Source of the DNA: Escherichia phage W70
Sequence record: OP778610
Strand: one strand, 5' to 3'
Length of the DNA stretch: 64,000 nt
Numbering within the stretch: the first letter of the stretch is position 1; the number at the start of each line of letters is the position of its first letter. Below, one piece after another: positions 3,475 to 39,369 of the stretch. Made by a program: the position numbers and the translations under genes. The notes below the pieces were generated by a model. It worked only from the letters and a program-made list of their open reading frames with translations. It was not told the DNA's origin and searched no databases.

Positions 3475-3855
3475 TTAGAGATAAACTCGCTTAACTTTTT
3501 CATGAACATTATCAAACAAAGTGTTGATCATCTGCAAGTCTTTAATAAGTTCTTCCGTAAATTGTTCTTCTTTGTGAGCAAACACACGAGAACGGTCAAT
3601 GTTTACAGGATCTGAACTTTGGTCGCCTGACAGATCGAAAATGTCGATACCGATACGAGCACGGCCTTTTTCAATCTTGTTGTTTTCATCAATACCGAAG
3701 ACACTCATGATTTGCATTTCACGATCTTCTTCACTGTTTGTGTAAATGATCGTCGTATTCAAATTCTTAACACCATCGTAAATGTGAATGTTACGTGTCG
3801 CAGAGATAGGAATCCAATCAGCAACCAAATAATCTTTACCGTCGAAAATACTCAT
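3475..3855 (-). CDS. hypothetical protein
   Basis: 126-aa ORF in co-directional array; no motif recognised. Confidence 0.5.
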   Translation of the reverse strand: MSIFDGKDYLVADWIPISATRNIHIYDGVKNLNTTIIYTNSEEDREMQIMSVFGIDENNKIEKGRARIGIDIFDLSGDQSSDPVNIDRSRVFAHKEEQFTEELIKDLQMINTLFDNVHEKVKRVYL

Positions 3856-3909
3856 CTTCTTTCCTCTTTTGTTTAAGTGGGGCCATTATGCCCCACACTT
3901 AACTTTCTG

Positions 3910-4482
3910 TCAAGGACGTTTCGGTGGACTAACGACACCTTTTTTAGATAAAGGTAATTCGTCTGCATCTTTTCCACGGAGAGATTCTAACCACTCATCT
4001 AAAGATAGAGGTACTTTGCCAACACCCTTGGACCATACAGATAAGCAATACAGGTCGTATGCAGATGGGCCAGCATCACCCTTGTCACCATACGGCCCTT
4101 TTAAACTCGCCAACCAATCCTTTTCATTCAGTGGGATAGTGCCTGGATCTTCTTGTCGAAGAACTCTTAGGTATGTTTCATAAGCAGACTCTCCACGGGG
4201 ACCCATTGGACCAGGTAAACCTTGCGGTCCCTTTGCATAGTCTAAATATGCAGACTTTGAACCATCATTGACCACTGAAACTTTATACAATGACCAAGCC
4301 AACAGAACTATCCAACAAGCAAACAATGCAAGCGGGTAAGGGATCATTGAAGTAAAGAATGACAGGGCTAAAATTACAACCTTGTTCTTGTGATCACGAC
4401 GGAAAGCGATGATCACAGGGGCTAACCAGATAGCAAAGATAACCCACGCAGATAAGATAAACAACCAACTAATGTATTCCAT
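3910..4482 (-). CDS. membrane protein with collagen-like G-X-Y triplets
   Basis: Hydrophobic N-terminal half (at least two TM-like stretches); GPQGLPGPMGPRGES and GPYGDKGDAGPS triplets. Confidence 0.55.
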   Translation of the reverse strand: MEYISWLFILSAWVIFAIWLAPVIIAFRRDHKNKVVILALSFFTSMIPYPLALFACWIVLLAWSLYKVSVVNDGSKSAYLDYAKGPQGLPGPMGPRGESAYETYLRVLRQEDPGTIPLNEKDWLASLKGPYGDKGDAGPSAYDLYCLSVWSKGVGKVPLSLDEWLESLRGKDADELPLSKKGVVSPPKRP

Positions 4483-4670
4483 TAAGCCTCCTCAGTATCG
4501 TCTTTAAAGTAATCTAACATCCAACTCTCTACAGGTTTCGCATAGTAACCCGTTCGCCCTTTCTTTTGGAACTCCATAACAATTTCATTTGCAATACCTT
4601 TTGTGATTGCGATCCCGATCAGTGCACCACCAGGCCCCATTACTGCATGTGAACTAAGATCATTACTCAT
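4482..4670 (-). CDS. hypothetical protein
   Basis: 62-aa ORF, start overlaps upstream stop. Confidence 0.4.
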   Translation of the reverse strand: MSNDLSSHAVMGPGGALIGIAITKGIANEIVMEFQKKGRTGYYAKPVESWMLDYFKDDTEEA

Positions 4671-4962
4671 TTTTAACCCCCTTCATTTTATCTCTTAAAC
4701 TTTGAGCATCCCACGTATAACCTGAGGAGATACCTTTTTCACGTTCACTATCTTTGAACTTGCAAATTACAGATTTTGCTTCACCATCAACAACAACCGC
4801 ATAACTGTTGTAGTAATTGTGTTGCTTCTTGCAAAATTCGTGTAACTCCTTGACCTCTATTGGCATCAGAGAAGGTAGATTTTTGTATCGCTTTGTCTGA
4901 TCATCTTCACCCTCTCCGCAACCAACAAGAAGAAGTATACATAAAATGATTAACCTTTTCAA
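4663..4962 (-). CDS. putative lipoprotein
   Basis: N-terminus KRLIILCILLLVGC resembles a lipobox signal; TTG start in track. Confidence 0.5.
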   Translation of the reverse strand: MKRLIILCILLLVGCGEGEDDQTKRYKNLPSLMPIEVKELHEFCKKQHNYYNSYAVVVDGEAKSVICKFKDSEREKGISSGYTWDAQSLRDKMKGVKNE

Positions 4963-5112
4963 TAGCTACCCCCAAAATATTTTGTAGTCTCTACTGCAAA
5001 TATTGTCCCAAGTATGAACCATGTCGCACTTAGCACGTTGAAAGGTAAAAACCTCGATCCTGCAAGAGAAACCATAATAAAAAACGTTACAAAAATCTCT
5101 GGAGGAATCATC
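4963..5112 (-). CDS. small hydrophobic peptide (48 aa)
   Basis: ATG overlaps upstream stop (ATGA); two hydrophobic stretches; below ORF-track cutoff. Confidence 0.3.
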
Positions 5113-5512
5113 ATTGTTTGATAGTCCCTTTGGCGATCATCTCGTCAAGTTCATCTTCCGCACGACACATGATTTGGTAGATAGTTTCTGGATTGTTTAA
5201 GAATTCTGTGTACTTCTTGATACGACAAACTAAACGTGCACGAACTTTACGCTCACGGGCCACATGATTAAAGTAATGTCCCTTTTGTCTGTAGACCCAA
5301 GCATAATATACAGTTTTTGCTCTCTGGCGATCAGAACCTAAACGTTCAGCTAATTCTGTGTACGGGTCATTGTTGGTTGGACCAAACAAAAATATTTCTG
5401 CAAAACTTTCCTTCATGATACGAGCTTCTTCATCCGTAACTCGCGGACATTCTTCAGAACCGTAACGTGGGGTTTTAGTGGCATTTGGCTTCTTAGGGTA
5501 TACTTTACGCAT
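5111..5512 (-). CDS. hypothetical basic protein
   Basis: 133-aa ORF, Arg/Lys-rich. Confidence 0.5.
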   Translation of the reverse strand: MRKVYPKKPNATKTPRYGSEECPRVTDEEARIMKESFAEIFLFGPTNNDPYTELAERLGSDRQRAKTVYYAWVYRQKGHYFNHVARERKVRARLVCRIKKYTEFLNNPETIYQIMCRAEDELDEMIAKGTIKQ

Positions 5513-7887: not shown

Positions 7888-8154
7888 TTAGATATAGTCT
7901 ACACCAGCTTGTTCCAACAAGTCAAGCCTTAATTTAAGTTCTTTTTCACGATAGTCGGAAACAAGTTTATCCTTTTTCTTTTCTTCTTCGTCGAACTGTT
8001 CGAGTGGAAGAATACGAATAATGTGCTCTGCCTTCATGTAGGACGTTGATCCGATAAGCTGAACATTACCATTTGGTAACAATCGACCCTTGATCACCCG
8101 ATAACGAGGGAACAAGTCATATTTAACAATCGCGGTAACTGCTAGATTACTCAT
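7888..8154 (-). CDS. hypothetical protein
   Basis: 88-aa ORF. Confidence 0.4.
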   Translation of the reverse strand: MSNLAVTAIVKYDLFPRYRVIKGRLLPNGNVQLIGSTSYMKAEHIIRILPLEQFDEEEKKKDKLVSDYREKELKLRLDLLEQAGVDYI

Positions 8155-8524
8155 GTGTATTCTCCATATCGCGAATTCGATCTTCTACCCAACCACGACG
8201 ATAAATGTTGAGGTAAGATTTACCTTTTGAACCATGATGGGCATATTCGTCAAAATCAAAATCAAAAGGCGTCTCGGTGTTAAGACCCGCATCAAAGAAT
8301 TGATTCTTCATTTCGAATTGCACTTTCATGTCTGGATCATTTTTACCTAAAAATGAAGACAAATTAAAACAAAGGCCAGCACCTCGGTAAAAAGCCCCAT
8401 CTTTTGGTGCACCGATATCTAACCATTTTTTATATTCTCGGTAGAAATTCAGAAGTTGCGGACTGCTTTTCATTTTGTTCTCCTCATTTGTTTTGATAGG
8501 ACTACTATAACATAGTCCTATCAA
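8147..8524 (-). CDS. hypothetical protein, paralog of 17859-18155
   Basis: Shares WLD-GAP...GLC...FxDAGL...PFD pattern with 17859-18155. Confidence 0.5.
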   Translation of the reverse strand: MIGLCYSSPIKTNEENKMKSSPQLLNFYREYKKWLDIGAPKDGAFYRGAGLCFNLSSFLGKNDPDMKVQFEMKNQFFDAGLNTETPFDFDFDEYAHHGSKGKSYLNIYRRGWVEDRIRDMENTHE

Positions 8525-8606
8525 CTTGTATACTATTTAATTAAAGATTTTATGAATGCTTGGTAGGACCCTTCTTTAAATACTCATCTGGATAATAAAA
8601 ATCATC

Positions 8607-8984
8607 CTATACTCCAAATGTGGATTTGATTTCAGCAATAACCTCATGCACATTGTTTTCGTTTACTTCAAATGTGTAGGACGTTGGTTTAAGGAACGTC
8701 TGAGGTGAAACATTAACAAAGAATTCAAATTCATCATTAAAAATTTCAAAGTATTTTCCAGGTGTTGATTCTTGGCTTTTGAAAACAGTACCATCTTCCA
8801 TAGTAACAGAAGAAACAGATTTTTCACCAAGGGTGTATGTTTTTAGCTCGTCAACAACGAAACTGGGGCCGTGGCGACGGAGTATTTCAACCATAGTTCG
8901 GTTAGCTCCACAAATACCAGTACGATTAATAAATAACTCTTCACACCGAGGATTGAGAATATAAGTTTTTCCTACTTGCATCAT
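8607..8984 (-). CDS. small-protein family member 1 of 3 (tandem)
   Basis: Starts M-QVGKTY-LNP, HGP-F-V core; similar to the two adjacent genes. Confidence 0.55.
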   Translation of the reverse strand: MMQVGKTYILNPRCEELFINRTGICGANRTMVEILRRHGPSFVVDELKTYTLGEKSVSSVTMEDGTVFKSQESTPGKYFEIFNDEFEFFVNVSPQTFLKPTSYTFEVNENNVHEVIAEIKSTFGV

Positions 8985-8994
8985 TACAATCTCC

Positions 8995-9354
8995 TTATGC
9001 TAAGTTAAATGTGGATTTGATCAGGTCAATAACCTCTTGTGCGTTGCTCTCCGACACAGATACCTGAATAATTTTAAGGTCGCTGACCTCTTCAAAGTAT
9101 TCGAACTCAGATTCACGAAGTTCAAAGTACATTGCCCCACAGCCCACACTGAATGAATCACACCCTACAGCACCATCTTCTGTTGTGATGTTATTAACAT
9201 ACTCATCACCTTCGATCATGCTCATGTTGTTAACAATAAATCGTGGCCCGTGCTCATCCAGAAAAGAAACAATCTCGTGATTGTAACTTGGGTCAGCCTG
9301 AATAAATTCTTCTACGAGTTTTGGATTAAGTTTATAAGTTTTTCCGACTTCCAT
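8995..9354 (-). CDS. small-protein family member 2 of 3
   Basis: MEVGKTYKLNP...HGPRFIVNN...LIKSTFNLA. Confidence 0.55.
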   Translation of the reverse strand: MEVGKTYKLNPKLVEEFIQADPSYNHEIVSFLDEHGPRFIVNNMSMIEGDEYVNNITTEDGAVGCDSFSVGCGAMYFELRESEFEYFEEVSDLKIIQVSVSESNAQEVIDLIKSTFNLA

Positions 9355-9365
9355 CTTTGTTCTCC

Positions 9366-9740
9366 TTACGCCAGGTTAAAGGTAGCTTTAATCAAATCTA
9401 AAGTTTCTTGTGCATTACTACGAGAGACGGCAACCTGAATAATAACAGGGTCTTCATCTTCCCCGACTTCTTTGAAGAAGGGAAATTCACTCTCTGCAAG
9501 TTCAAAGTATACACACTTGTTACCTTCGCAGTCGTGAAAAACGTCACTACCTAAAGTACCATCTTCAAATATGACATTGTTAACATATGCAACATTATCA
9601 TAGAAGTGGGTGGTGTTGACAACAAATTTAGGACCGTGCTTATAAATAAGGTCAACCAATTCTTGATTGTAGCTAGGGTCCATATTGATAAAAGCTTTTT
9701 CTAAGTCTTTATTAAGAATGTAAGTTTTTCCGATTTCCAT
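9366..9740 (-). CDS. small-protein family member 3 of 3
   Basis: Internal start MEIGKTYILNK with GAGGAG RBS; ends LIKATFNLA. Confidence 0.55.
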   Translation of the reverse strand: MEIGKTYILNKDLEKAFINMDPSYNQELVDLIYKHGPKFVVNTTHFYDNVAYVNNVIFEDGTLGSDVFHDCEGNKCVYFELAESEFPFFKEVGEDEDPVIIQVAVSRSNAQETLDLIKATFNLA

Positions 9741-9807
9741 CTTTGCTCTCCTCTTCAGTTGATGGATACATCTTAGTTGATATAGACATGTCTTGTCAAT
9801 AACTTTT

Positions 9808-9843
9808 TGCACATAAAAGAAAACCACCCTTCGGGGTGGTTTA
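9808..9843 (-). terminator. intrinsic terminator
   Basis: Minus-strand stem aaaccacccc-gaag-ggtggttt then T-run, downstream of polymerase exon 2. Confidence 0.6.
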
Positions 9844-9848
9844 AATTA

Positions 9849-10148
9849 CTAGTGGCACGCCCCCCAGTTCATCCCTGTGAGGTATTCACCTGTTATGTGG
9901 ACAGGAGATTTCATCATTCGTGCTGCTTGCTCTACACAACGAACAACCATCTCTCCAACTGGACAATACATGATCGTGTAGATTCCATTCTCATCAGGAT
10001 CACACTTAAACTTCCCTTCTTTCACACAATGACCATCCAAGATCATTTTCTTAGCCAAGCAAGCTTCTACAAATTTCTTCGCGTCAGCTTCGTTGTCAAA
10101 GGTCCAGGTCTTCTTGAACTTGTGCGGTACTTCAAGCTGGTATTCATC
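9849..10148 (-). CDS. DNA polymerase (family A), exon 2
   Basis: DEYQLEV completes motif C when joined to exon 1 (YYH|DE); C-terminus NWGACH like Pol I/T7 ...H terminus. Confidence 0.65.
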   Translation of the reverse strand, partial: DEYQLEVPHKFKKTWTFDNEADAKKFVEACLAKKMILDGHCVKEGKFKCDPDENGIYTIMYCPVGEMVVRCVEQAARMMKSPVHITGEYLTGMNWGACH

Positions 10149-10920
10149 CAAAAGTTTAACGAGGTCGTTACTCTCGCCCACATCATTACATGTTGCCATA
10201 CGTTTTCACATATGGATCGGACTATATCACCATCCTTTTCAGGATGCTCCCCATTTCGACGGCACTTGCTCGCCTACGCCTCTCGGCTAGTCTCTGAACG
10301 TTAGGACCATGTGTAGTCACAAGAGATGTGTGTCCAGTTTTTACGGATTTTTATGGACCTTACCACGTTGTAAGGATAACCCATATCCCGAATCTGTGCA
10401 CTTCCATAACCTTGCCCCAGGAAGTTGCAAATCTCTCTAACCTCTTCTTCGGTAACTATACTTCTGGCGTTATCAACCCCTGTTGCTGAACGACATTTAT
10501 CAGCAAAGGTTTTCTTGATATTTCCACCACGAGTTGTCCATTGGAGGTTTGAATAGTGGTTATTCCTTTTGTCAGGCCACTTATGATCAACCTCCGGCAA
10601 ACCTTCAGGGTTTGGTACAAAACACTCTGCCACCAAAACGTGAACAGCCTTTGTAGTCGTCCTTTTGTTGAGATACAGACTTACAATAAGATACCCACGT
10701 CCATTATCAACTGCCGCCATTGGTTTCCCTCGACGACCTATAATGGTCCCGTCTTCATAAACCTTGTAACCGAAATAATCTTTATATTCCACATGATCCT
10801 CTTCGCTGCTGATTAACATAGTCTCATACTAACTCACACTTGAATTAATATCAACCTTAGTCTTCCAGCAATTAAAGGAGTTTTCGATGTGAGTTACCTC
10901 ACAAAGCCACAATGTTACTT
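10149..10920 (-). mobile_element. group I intron in DNA polymerase gene, HNH-ORF-containing
   Basis: In-frame stop right after exon 1; core elements GACTAGCCGAGAGGCGTAG and GATATAGTCC on minus strand; ends in G before exon 2. Confidence 0.65.
10301..10819 (-). CDS. HNH homing endonuclease (intron-encoded)
   Basis: LPEVDHKWPDKRNNHYSNLQWTT HNH-type motif; lies inside intron. Confidence 0.7.
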   Translation of the reverse strand: MLISSEEDHVEYKDYFGYKVYEDGTIIGRRGKPMAAVDNGRGYLIVSLYLNKRTTTKAVHVLVAECFVPNPEGLPEVDHKWPDKRNNHYSNLQWTTRGGNIKKTFADKCRSATGVDNARSIVTEEEVREICNFLGQGYGSAQIRDMGYPYNVVRSIKIRKNWTHISCDYTWS

Positions 10921-13251
10921 ATGGTAATAGATAATACGTCTAACGCCTTCATCATACCAACCTTTCTTAACCAACTGCCAGTGCAGGAGGATACCCACCA
11001 AGTCAAACAGTGCAGCACCACCATTCTGCTGATAAGCATTAAGCAATGAGTGTTTGGAACGAGTGTAGATCTTACGTCCATCAAGACCGTAGATGAATCG
11101 CTTACCGTTAGCTTCCCAAAACTTCTCTAGTGCTTCTTTACGACCTTTCAAGCCGATGTTGCTATCCCAGAATGCGTCGATTACTGCCTGGGCCTTCTCA
11201 AGAGTGATCCCCAGCATTGATGCAATCTTCGCTGCCTGTGCCCCGTACATAATTCCGTATGTCACACCTTTACCTTCACCACGAGAAACCTTCTTCCCTG
11301 CCGCTTTGGTATACGCTTCTGCGTTTCGGGAGTGAGCATCTCCAGATTCCATGATACGAAGATAAGCACCGCCATCGAAATCATAAGCGCCCCATGCTGC
11401 GATCATACCTTCTAGGTTTGAACCGTCGATACCTACCTGATATTTACCCTCAGAGGCTCTGAATAGTTCACGCATCTCTTTACCGAGAAGAACTTTCTCA
11501 TCCGGCTTAGGTACGTTTGCTACGATCGTATGCTTACGACGACCTGTGTTAGTTATTCCACTATAACGGGCCGGAAGTTTACCGTCAACTCGTAGACGTG
11601 GATGGTTAAGCCATCCGGTATCAACCTTCTCTTCTTTCAGCGGGTCAAGAACAGATCGTCGGTTACGTAAAGACAGCCATTTAACAATCTGTTTAGCCAT
11701 TTCACCATCTACTCGCTCAAGGTTAGGGCAAAGACCCTGTTGATCCTTAAGTTGTGGAGATGTAGGTAATGCACGAGCTTTCTTACGGAAAAACTTGAAC
11801 ATCTTTTCTTTATCTGACCACTGCTTAGGTGTGATCGCCAAGCTTTTCAGAATCAGATCACGATACTCCGTCTGATCCAAATCTTCAATGTATTGACGAA
11901 CAATCAGATCAACTTCACTATCGGGACGTTGTTTCTTGAACTGATCTTTAGTTGCATCCTTTGTACGCCAAATTGTTGGGACCCATCCTGCATCACGGAT
12001 CAGGAACTTCTTAACGTCGTCCTGGTTACCAATACGCATCGGAATCATAATGTCCGGCATCTTTTGTTCTTTGATATCCATCAAAGCACGAGCCATATCT
12101 TCCGGCGGCAAAGGAACAAGCCCTTGCTGCTTAACGTTTTGTGCACGGATAAAATCACCCATTTTGGATTCGTCCTCTACACCGTGTTCAACACAATACT
12201 TGATCGCGGCAGCAGTAAGAGATCCGTCAGCCTTAAACGGCTTACTTGGTGCACCTTTAAATTCCAAGGCTTCCCAATTGATATTATAACCTAACTTCTC
12301 TAACCATTTCCAACCTGTACCGGAAAGAGATCCATCACCCTTGAAAGGTTTGGATGGGAATGTCGGTTGTGCTGATTTCGACATCTCTTTCTTCGGCAAC
12401 TTAGGTTCAACCTCTAACTCAATGTCAGTCATCATCTTATCGATACGATCACGAAGCTTGAGTGCTTTTTCTTCATCAAATGAAACACCCTGAATTTCTT
12501 GCTCAATCATCAGGTAGTCAGTCAACATACCTCGACGCAGGGCATTCTTCCAGTTGATCATTTTATACTTCTTCTGATCTTTGTCTGTTTCATCCTTAAA
12601 CATGAAGCGTTTATCATCCGGCATGGATTCACAGGAGATCTCTTTCATCAGAGCATCCCACACCATTTCGTTGATAATTACGTCTTCAATAATACGATCG
12701 CAATACTTCCAAAGTGGAAGGCCACGCCAATCTTCAATCGCCACTTTCTGGTTAGCTACTCGCATACCCCAAGCTTCAAGCCCGTGTGGCCCTACAGGCT
12801 TCATTTTACCTGTGACGGGGTTCTTTACCATCTCAGGACAACCGCGAGGCAGAGGGCGATCTGGATACAATGTACGGGACATTGAAAGTGTATCGAAGAT
12901 GGTTACTTGTTTACCATTGATCGTCCCCATGCAACCAGGGTCTGCAAACATATCGTAAGTTGTTCCTAGCATCTTCTTAAACAACTGGAGGTCATAGCCG
13001 AAGATGTTGTGGATAGCAACTGCTTTAGGCTCGGTAACGAACCATTCGTTTAATTCTTCAAGGGTGCGGATCTTGAAGTTTTTACCTTTAGATTGGATAA
13101 ATTTAACAGCTTGATCGTAACCTTCTCGCTGTGGATCAAGAAAGATGTTCCAGTTATCTTTTTTGTACTCTTTAAACAAGATGCAGTGGATTAGATCAAC
13201 TTCTGTCAACAGACCATTAGCTTCCGCATCTCCAATAAATAAGCCTTTCAT
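10921..13251 (-). CDS. DNA polymerase (family A), exon 1
   Basis: N-terminal FIGDAEANG 3'-5' exo motif; KKVSRGEGKGVTYGIMYGAQAAKIA resembles motif B; ORF stops one codon after ...YYH. Confidence 0.75.
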
Positions 13252-38745: not shown

Positions 38746-39369
38746 ATGGCTATATATGCAAAACTGAAAGAAAGTAAGAAAAGTTATTTTATTTCGATGG
38801 ACCCATCTAACCGACGTATGATTGAAAATCATGGTGATCGATTCATTGTTCGACCTTCTGAGAATAACGATTCTTACTTACGTCCGGTGGGTCCACGTAT
38901 TGAGGGTCAGTTCTTAACATCCCGAGATATCGAAGAGTATTTTACATTCTTTCCTGAATGGTCAGCAGAGTCAGCAGAATACATCGTTAACTTGGCGATC
39001 CCGCAGGGTCAAGTGTCTATTGATGATCAGTATCTGTTGGGTGATTTAACTGGGGACTATAGAATTAAAACAAGCCACCCGAATATGTGGCGACTGTATA
39101 ACAACTCTACTAACCCTGATGATTATGTCCTAATCAAGCAGAGTAATTTGGAGAAATATTTTACCTTGCAAGAAGACTCCTTAAAGAAAGCACTGAAGAA
39201 GTTTGACAATTACACCCCTGCACCTGTAGAAAAAGAACAGGAAGTTGTAGATACGGATGTTTTTGAAGTGAACATTAAGCGCACAGTCAGGGTTAAGGAT
39301 GCGGAAGTCACAGAGGACAATCTGGATCAATTCATTGCACAGCTTACTAAACTGGTTAAAGGAGAATAA
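38746..39369 (+). CDS. hypothetical protein
   Basis: GAGGAG RBS; 207 aa. Confidence 0.55.
   Translation: MAIYAKLKESKKSYFISMDPSNRRMIENHGDRFIVRPSENNDSYLRPVGPRIEGQFLTSRDIEEYFTFFPEWSAESAEYIVNLAIPQGQVSIDDQYLLGDLTGDYRIKTSHPNMWRLYNNSTNPDDYVLIKQSNLEKYFTLQEDSLKKALKKFDNYTPAPVEKEQEVVDTDVFEVNIKRTVRVKDAEVTEDNLDQFIAQLTKLVKGE

Follow-up and report, generated by a model that had tools for sequence, protein, structure and literature searches.

The closest described relative of the genes treated here is frd.2 of bacteriophage T4. Its product is made early and is predicted to carry an LSm-like N-terminal barrel, being grouped in one family with the T4 proteins GoF and MotB.1; phages with an amber mutation in the gene plate normally (PMC12152347). 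FRD2, the family named for it, is compact and phage-only; frd.2 is nonetheless important for fitness in a genome-wide knock-down (CRISPRi-ART) screen of T4, in which it was the sole "Fit" gene without a known function (PMC11879866). Our search of the literature on FRD2 and PF03197 returned unrelated papers and a Pfam count in Entamoeba only, and newer literature on GoF and MotB.1 added nothing. A second described system which bears on this locus is the promoter/stem-loop (PeSL) cassette of T4-type phages; these cassettes mediate modular shuffling, and their early-promoter consensus is TTTACW-17 nt-TAYWAT (PMC4122927).

Here, we describe an array of FRD2-family genes in a window of 64,000 nucleotides (the whole stretch of DNA that was analyzed). 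In the list of open reading frames, the array appears as three minus-strand ORFs lying back to back between positions 8607 and 9740 (P1, P2, and P3), and candidate regulatory signals flank it on both sides. In the order in which the minus strand is read, the features are as follows.

9821 to 9842, minus strand: terminator-like hairpin, AAACCACCCCGAAGGGTGGTTT, followed by a T-run; found by a terminator scan, and predicted to close the DNA polymerase transcription unit upstream of the array.
9770 to 9799, minus strand: sigma-70-type promoter-like site, TTGACA-18 nt-TAAGAT, with 10 of 12 consensus matches, ca. 30 nt upstream of the P1 start.
9366 to 9740, minus strand: P1, an FRD2-family protein of 124 aa from its ATG (Pfam PF03197, E 1.3e-18, 67.9 bits).
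8995 to 9354, minus strand: P2, the duplicate partner of P1, an FRD2-family protein of 119 aa (Pfam PF03197, E 3.3e-20, 73.0 bits).
8607 to 8984, minus strand: P3, an FRD2-family protein of 125 aa belonging to an "HGPSF" subfamily held in common with T-even phages (Pfam PF03197, E 3.2e-20, 73.1 bits).
8467 to 8551, minus strand: putative T4-type promoter/stem-loop (PeSL-like) cassette of 85 nt, recognized from its consensus, its hairpin, and its DNA identity to T-even phages.

The earlier note had read this region as three consecutive, related genes of about 120 aa, and that reading holds: the products are 124, 119, and 125 aa long, and every pair is matched by blastp (E 2e-36 to 4e-13). P1 and P2 are 54% identical (E 2e-36); P3 is 38% identical to P2 (E 6e-14) and 36% identical to P1 (E 4e-13), all in pairwise blastp with a nominal database of 1e9 residues. 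The likeness is not a matter of a few chance residues, since 35 columns of the three-way alignment are invariant (including GKTY-LN, HGP-F-V, EDG, and YFE..EF..F) and the real pairs score 69 to 125 bits, against a maximum of 23.5 bits among residue shuffles (100 per pair). The same blocks can also be seen in the DNA, as direct repeats spaced 373 to 391 nt apart with 65 to 76% identity. The genes are separated by gaps of only 11 nt (P1-P2) and 10 nt (P2-P3), and each is preceded by an AGGAG-type Shine-Dalgarno sequence. Of the blocks that were thought to be common to all three proteins, those at the start (GKTY-LN) and in the middle (HGP-F-V) are indeed so, but the terminal block LIK-TFNLA occurs in P1 and P2 only, the end of P3 being EIKSTFGV.

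One gene call required correction. In GenBank, the counterpart of P1 (A73_101) begins with a GTG at 9827, which makes it 153 aa, or 29 codons longer than our P1. The 29-codon extension (9741 to 9827, minus strand) has no counterpart in any homologue and overlaps both the terminator-like hairpin and the promoter-like site. We rejected the GTG start because the family alignment and the annotations of four sister phages fit the ATG at 9740, which is the likely start of a 124-aa protein.

As to family membership, all three proteins cover positions 2 to 95 of the 96 in the PF03197 profile, above the gathering threshold of 29 bits, and match PHROG 622 over their full length (E 1e-20 to 2.5e-23). They also align end to end with T4 Frd.2 in an alignment of 41 sequences. 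On these profile matches, we regard P1 to P3 as true, diverged homologues within the named family FRD2 (PF03197/PHROG 622). Seven residues (Y7, N25, F39, E85, F89, N109, and F121) are invariant over 30 family representatives; the positions conserved family wide consist mainly of the hydrophobic core together with Asn and Glu, and none is basic. In all family members examined, the pI lies between 4.1 and 5.3 and the net charge between -4 and -19. No relative of solved structure emerged when PDB sequences were searched with a profile. Elsewhere in the window, a 207-aa ORF (38746 to 39369, plus strand) appears to be a distant member of the FRD2 superfamily, the fourth in the window. It is matched by hmmsearch in two stretches (E 3.7e-7) and by hhalign with 93% probability over the N-terminal barrel only; it resembles "long" forms of 225 to 254 aa (P0035 and P0037) and was found by tblastn in the five A73-group genomes only.

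Escherichia phage A73 (OP778609, Vequintavirinae, 142 kb) has an array and flanks that are 100% identical to those described here. Identity between the window and A73 is 98.5% over the first 25 kb of the window but only 94% for one distant ORF. The array region is matched at 93 to 97% by four sister phages (A7_1, A5-4, UPEC06, and vB_EcoM-LTH01). By these comparisons the window is a phage of the A73 group (Vequintavirinae, rV5-like), not necessarily A73 itself. The three FRD2 genes lie directly downstream of the DNA polymerase gene in all five A73-group genomes, with their ORFs intact. In Certrevirus (PBES 02 and CB7), the nearest genus of the Vequintavirinae, the DNA polymerase gene is followed by unrelated small genes.

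When 50,697 phage records were searched by tblastn, FRD2 matches were found in 488 to 506 of them, nearly all T4-like phages of ca. 165 to 175 kb whose hosts are Escherichia, Shigella, Yersinia, Salmonella, and their relatives, and whose identity to the array proteins is below 60%. Close copies were found only in the five Vequintavirinae records of the A73 group, at three places each. The count of 546 FRD2 places in 488 records implies that about 10% of the T-even records have two places, a single copy being usual. Taken together, these matches depict a family centered on T-even phages and present also in a single small clade of rV5-like phages that infect the same host. Searched exhaustively with a profile, 1.84 billion representatives yielded just 39 clusters at E<=1e-3, several of them spurious; candidate multi-FRD2 giants among these (P0014, P0033, P0039, and others, 445 to 6096 aa) were rejected as spurious matches to cadherin- or Ig-repeat proteins. 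A search for related loci with the P1/P2 alignment yielded two T4-like IMG/VR loci and no further arrays, and a word-index protein search with P2 recovered only its own cluster, the index being too coarse for FRD2.

The surroundings of the array are themselves variable. A5-4 and A7_1 have extra small ORFs which are absent from the window (locus L002, positions 2633 to 2875 and 4024 to 4975; locus L006, positions 3855 to 5380); in A5-4, one such ORF separates P3 from the next gene, and between P1 and the polymerase gene there are three or four. These extra ORFs mark the surroundings of the array as a probable hot spot of insertion and deletion. Upstream, the DNA polymerase gene (9849 to 13251, minus strand) is split by an insert of ca. 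772 nt (10149 to 10920) that contains an HNH homing-endonuclease ORF (10301 to 10819; phrog_59, E 2e-33). The insert region matches the Rfam group I intron model RF00028 at 10197 to 10930 with 39.7 bits (E 1.2e-7), which is below the gathering score of 50. The junction is defined by the uninterrupted polymerase of UPEC06, residues 1 to 750 of which map to 13170 to 10921 and residues 751 to 849 to 10148 to 9852; in the GenBank record of A73, the exons appear as two separate "DNA polymerase" CDS. On the other side of the array lies A73_104 (8147 to 8473, minus strand, 108 aa), which belongs to phrog_2510, a widespread family without an assigned function that has several copies per genome (up to six places per record) in phi92-like and phAPEC8-like phages and has further members in phages of Rhizobium, Erwinia, and Klebsiella.

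The element at 8467 to 8551 combines TATACA-17 nt-TATAGT (with a TG extension) and an overlapping 13-bp hairpin; its RNA fold has a z-score of -3.2, and after these come the Shine-Dalgarno sequence and the start codon of A73_104 (ATG at 8473). More than 200 T-even records carry counterparts of this cassette, at several places per genome and with 84 to 89% DNA identity; there, it either immediately precedes FRD2 genes or separates them. The coding sequence on its flanks is much less conserved (46% protein identity), and the hairpin occurs once in the 64-kb window. In its composition, this putative regulatory element agrees with the PeSL cassettes described for T4-type phages. Sigma-70-like sites as a class are not enriched in the region (5 observed versus 5.6 expected from shuffled sequence), a count that should be kept in mind when reading the site at 9770 to 9799. 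From the hairpin and the promoter-like site upstream of P1, the short intergenic gaps, and the early expression of T4 Frd.2, we infer that P1 to P3 are most likely cotranscribed and early.

All three genes appear to be maintained. Among orthologue pairs with measurable dS in the five genomes, Nei-Gojobori dN/dS was 0.04 to 0.31 for each of P1, P2, and P3, which argues that all three are kept as functional genes. The earlier note had likened the divergence of the copies to that of phage counterdefense or host-takeover factors; what the substitution rates reveal is purifying selection on all three genes, and gene-wide diversifying selection was not seen, a gene-wide ratio nevertheless being compatible with positive selection confined to a few loop residues. 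The notion that the copies are pseudogenes or decaying duplicates was likewise rejected, given these ratios and the intact ORFs in all five A73-group phages. Identical and near-identical copies are distributed among the sister phages as a mosaic (the P1 genes of A73 and A7_1 are identical, yet their P2 genes differ with a dS of 0.29), which suggests recombination within the array.

Structure prediction gave an AlphaFold2 model for P1 (pLDDT 92.1, pTM 0.70, from an alignment of 30 sequences). The model has strands at residues 6 to 9, 38 to 47, 50 to 58, 63 to 65, and 89 to 92 and helices at 11 to 20, 22 to 35, and 83 to 88, with a C-terminal helix at 107 to 120; we read it as a small barrel of a generic SH3/Tudor-like type, to which a C-terminal helix is added. 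A Foldseek search of BFVD with this model retrieved T4-like phage proteins, including GoF (E 8e-5) and T4 MotB.1 (E 9e-5). Against the PDB, Foldseek found nothing significant, the LSm domain of Edc3 being a weak match (E ~1 to 4). A specifically LSm-like fold is possible but is not supported by the model. Mapped onto these elements, conservation between the paralogues is highest in strand 1 (80%), the YFEL..EF core (50 to 69%), and the C-terminal helix (80%, P1/P2), and it is lowest in the helices (28 to 44%), the loop at 61 to 77 (18 to 29%), and the linker (0 to 45%).

How might such proteins act? Arguing from the fold class, the charge, and analogy, we tentatively favor the possibility that they are acidic, protein-binding adaptors or inhibitors, in the knowledge that this choice could well prove wrong. 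P1 to P3 would be made together early in infection, from behind the terminator-like hairpin and the sigma-70-like promoter, each with its own ribosome-binding site. Each protein would be a small, strongly acidic adaptor in two parts, in which an SH3/Tudor-like beta-barrel, carrying a two-helix insert, is joined to a C-terminal strand and helix, and its target would be a host or phage protein of transcription or RNA handling and not nucleic acid itself. The variable helices, barrel loops, and linker would then direct each paralogue to different partners or partner variants, with purifying selection keeping all three.

A counterdefense or host-takeover role is plausible for small, acidic, early proteins, and it may be that each paralogue neutralizes a different host antiphage system (or variant thereof), the array growing by gene gain. 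The setting has much that would suit such an arsenal: the region is hyperplastic, with turnover of copy number and alleles among close relatives; the family is limited to enterobacterial phages and seems to have been transferred between unrelated coliphages; and the T4 frd.2 amber mutant shows the gene to be dispensable on laboratory strains (PMC12152347). However, our searches of Pfam and PHROGs revealed no similarity to any characterized antidefense protein; P1 to P3 match FRD2 and families of unknown function there (FRD2 being the only Pfam family), and PADLOC, which models defense-side proteins, gave no meaningful match. Nor do the dN/dS values carry any gene-wide sign of an arms race, and the finding that frd.2 is a fitness gene for T4 on a laboratory host (PMC11879866) suggests a more general role. 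On balance, we consider a counterdefense arsenal rather unlikely.

[quoted passage not shown] The structural kinship to GoF and MotB.1 was reproduced by our Foldseek search, and the weak matches to the Edc3 LSm domain point in the same direction. Furthermore, GoF(D25Y) has been found to stabilize a reporter mRNA (PMC12152347). However, mRNA stabilization, the sole known phenotype in the GoF/MotB.1 group, belongs to this gain-of-function mutant of GoF, and wild-type GoF and MotB.1 were inactive in the published assay; acidity (pI 4.1 to 5.0) would also argue against RNA binding. The published RNA-related hypothesis for the superfamily, based as it is on GoF(D25Y), conflicts with a purely protein-binding model such as the adaptor model that we prefer.

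About as doubtful is a narrower proposal, by analogy with the Tudor domains of CarD, Mfd, UvrD, and PcrA, in which the barrel would dock on the beta subunit of the host RNA polymerase and redirect or inhibit transcription.

One speculative reading, to which we would attach only a small chance, concerns the three copies as a group. They could form a specificity set, in which the differing loops and helices each fit another host target or target variant (e.g., RNA polymerase, Rho, an RNase, or a defense sensor), or they could combine in one mixed oligomer, in the manner of eukaryotic LSm paralogues; in either version, the exchange of genes and modules via T4-type cassettes would allow unrelated phages to share the set. 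If this were true, the exchange between T-even and rV5-like phages would be a route by which unrelated phage families share a host-specific toolkit.

The history of the array can be addressed with more assurance. In a neighbor-joining tree of 41 FRD2 members (Kimura distances, 200 bootstraps), the P1 and P2 orthologues form a clade with 93 to 95% support, and P3 groups with the T-even HGPSF subfamily (LF82-1_a, LF82-1_b, cluster P0005, and LTH01_P3) with 90% support. P3 is 46% identical to its T-even homologues, versus 36 to 38% to P1 and P2. A clade of P1, P2, and P3, or of all Vequintavirinae members, receives 0 to 1% support in trees of the full length and of either terminal domain alone. 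The synonymous sites of P1 and P2 are saturated, which indicates that their duplication is old. We conclude from the tree that the array comprises one old local duplication (P1/P2) and a third gene, P3, from another FRD2 lineage.

In LTH01, the third slot holds a different allele, whose protein is 47% identical to the P3 of A73; at the DNA level, 90% of its 501 nt matches T-even frd.2 loci with 74 to 76% identity. On this evidence, FRD2 genes have been exchanged between T-even and A73-group phages, which have E. coli as a common host, and the gene in the third slot was exchanged for another on at least one occasion (in LTH01). The deep nodes of the tree are weak (5 to 30% bootstrap), such that any number or direction of transfers read from the tree by itself would be tentative. 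Considering the distribution of the family, transfer from T-even phages to the A73 group would be the parsimonious direction.

Exchange seems not to have been limited to whole genes. In the FRD2 family alignment (loci L003, L004, and L007 and protein P0005), a tree of the N-terminal domain retains the HGPSF group (86%), but in the C-terminal tree, a "type A" clade of LTH01_P3, LF82-1_a, P0005, and T4 Frd.2 (94%) cuts across it. P0005 is a hybrid; its C-terminal domain is identical to that of T4 Frd.2, and its N-terminal domain is only 33% identical. The discordance of the two domain trees, together with this hybrid, suggests recombination in the linker (domain shuffling), and by the same comparisons both whole-gene and half-gene replacements have occurred in FRD2. 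The T4-type cassette and the discordant domain trees thus point to recombinational shuffling of cassettes and domains.

That a single ancestral gene was copied twice in place within the phage lineage and then diverged, as the word "triplication" in the earlier note implied, is very unlikely: the adjacency, common orientation and spacing, and similar ribosome-binding sites and start regions of the genes would suit it, and duplication and divergence did apparently give rise to the P1/P2 pair, but P3 lies nearer to T-even homologues than to its neighbors, the three-way clade is virtually without bootstrap support over the full length or in either domain, and the P3 slot of LTH01 holds another allele.

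Taken as a whole, we consider our explanation of the array (its family, its composite origin, and its flanking signals) to be probable, the adaptor-like mechanism within it being less so. The locus would then document the shuffling of genes and domains between T-even and rV5-like phages beside a T4-type regulatory cassette, and it implies that FRD2 confers enough benefit to be taken up by different phage families whose common host is E. coli. With three divergent copies retained by purifying selection, a phage that is not related to T4 also offers a natural set of variants with which to find the partner of these proteins and the surfaces that confer specificity.

It remains to set the locus against the systems with which we began. 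Like P1 to P3, T4 Frd.2 belongs to a size class of 119 to 128 aa, is acidic, and is predicted to proceed from an N-terminal barrel through a linker to a C-terminal strand and helix; the motifs GK.Y, N..MV, GG/GP.F.V, DG, YFEL.E.EF..F.EV, and N..E.I.LIKK.F are common to all. However, its identity to P1 to P3 is only ca. 31 to 40%, and T4 has a single copy, located between gene 32 and frd, whereas the A73 group (Vequintavirinae) has three, downstream of the DNA polymerase gene. P1 and P2 constitute a lineage of their own without a close T-even counterpart (the best being CJ20_088, at ca. 40%). The likeness to GoF and MotB.1, members of the LSm-like superfamily (Kim et al. 2025, PMC12152347), lies in the similar predicted N-terminal small beta-barrel of P1; there is no significant sequence similarity between these two proteins and P1 to P3 (the array proteins match the PHROG of T4 goF weakly, at E 0.11), and the C-terminal parts differ.

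As with the PeSL cassettes of T4-type phages (Arbiol et al. 2010; Comeau et al. 2014, PMC4122927), the element at 8467 to 8551 appears to place an early promoter and a stem-loop between variable small genes, but it does so in a non-T4 phage, occurs once in the window, and has its stem-loop overlapping the -10 region. The nearest parallels to the array as a whole are the FRD2 pairs of T-even phages, such as the adjacent genes of LF82-1 (XUL00278 and XUL00277) and CJ20_086 and CJ20_088, which lie one gene apart. These are neighboring paralogues like those of the array and are split by the same promoter/stem-loop cassette that adjoins the array in the A73 group; P3, moreover, is 46% identical to LF82-1_b and has the same type of C terminus. 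The T-even pairs have two copies, in the interval between gene 32 and frd, and the A73 group has three. The FRD2 family itself was already known, and in other respects the locus is an unremarkable cluster of paralogous, hypothetical phage genes; what is new is the setting in the Vequintavirinae instead of the Tevenvirinae, the copy number of three, and the evidence for exchange between phage families and for the shuffling of N- and C-terminal domains.
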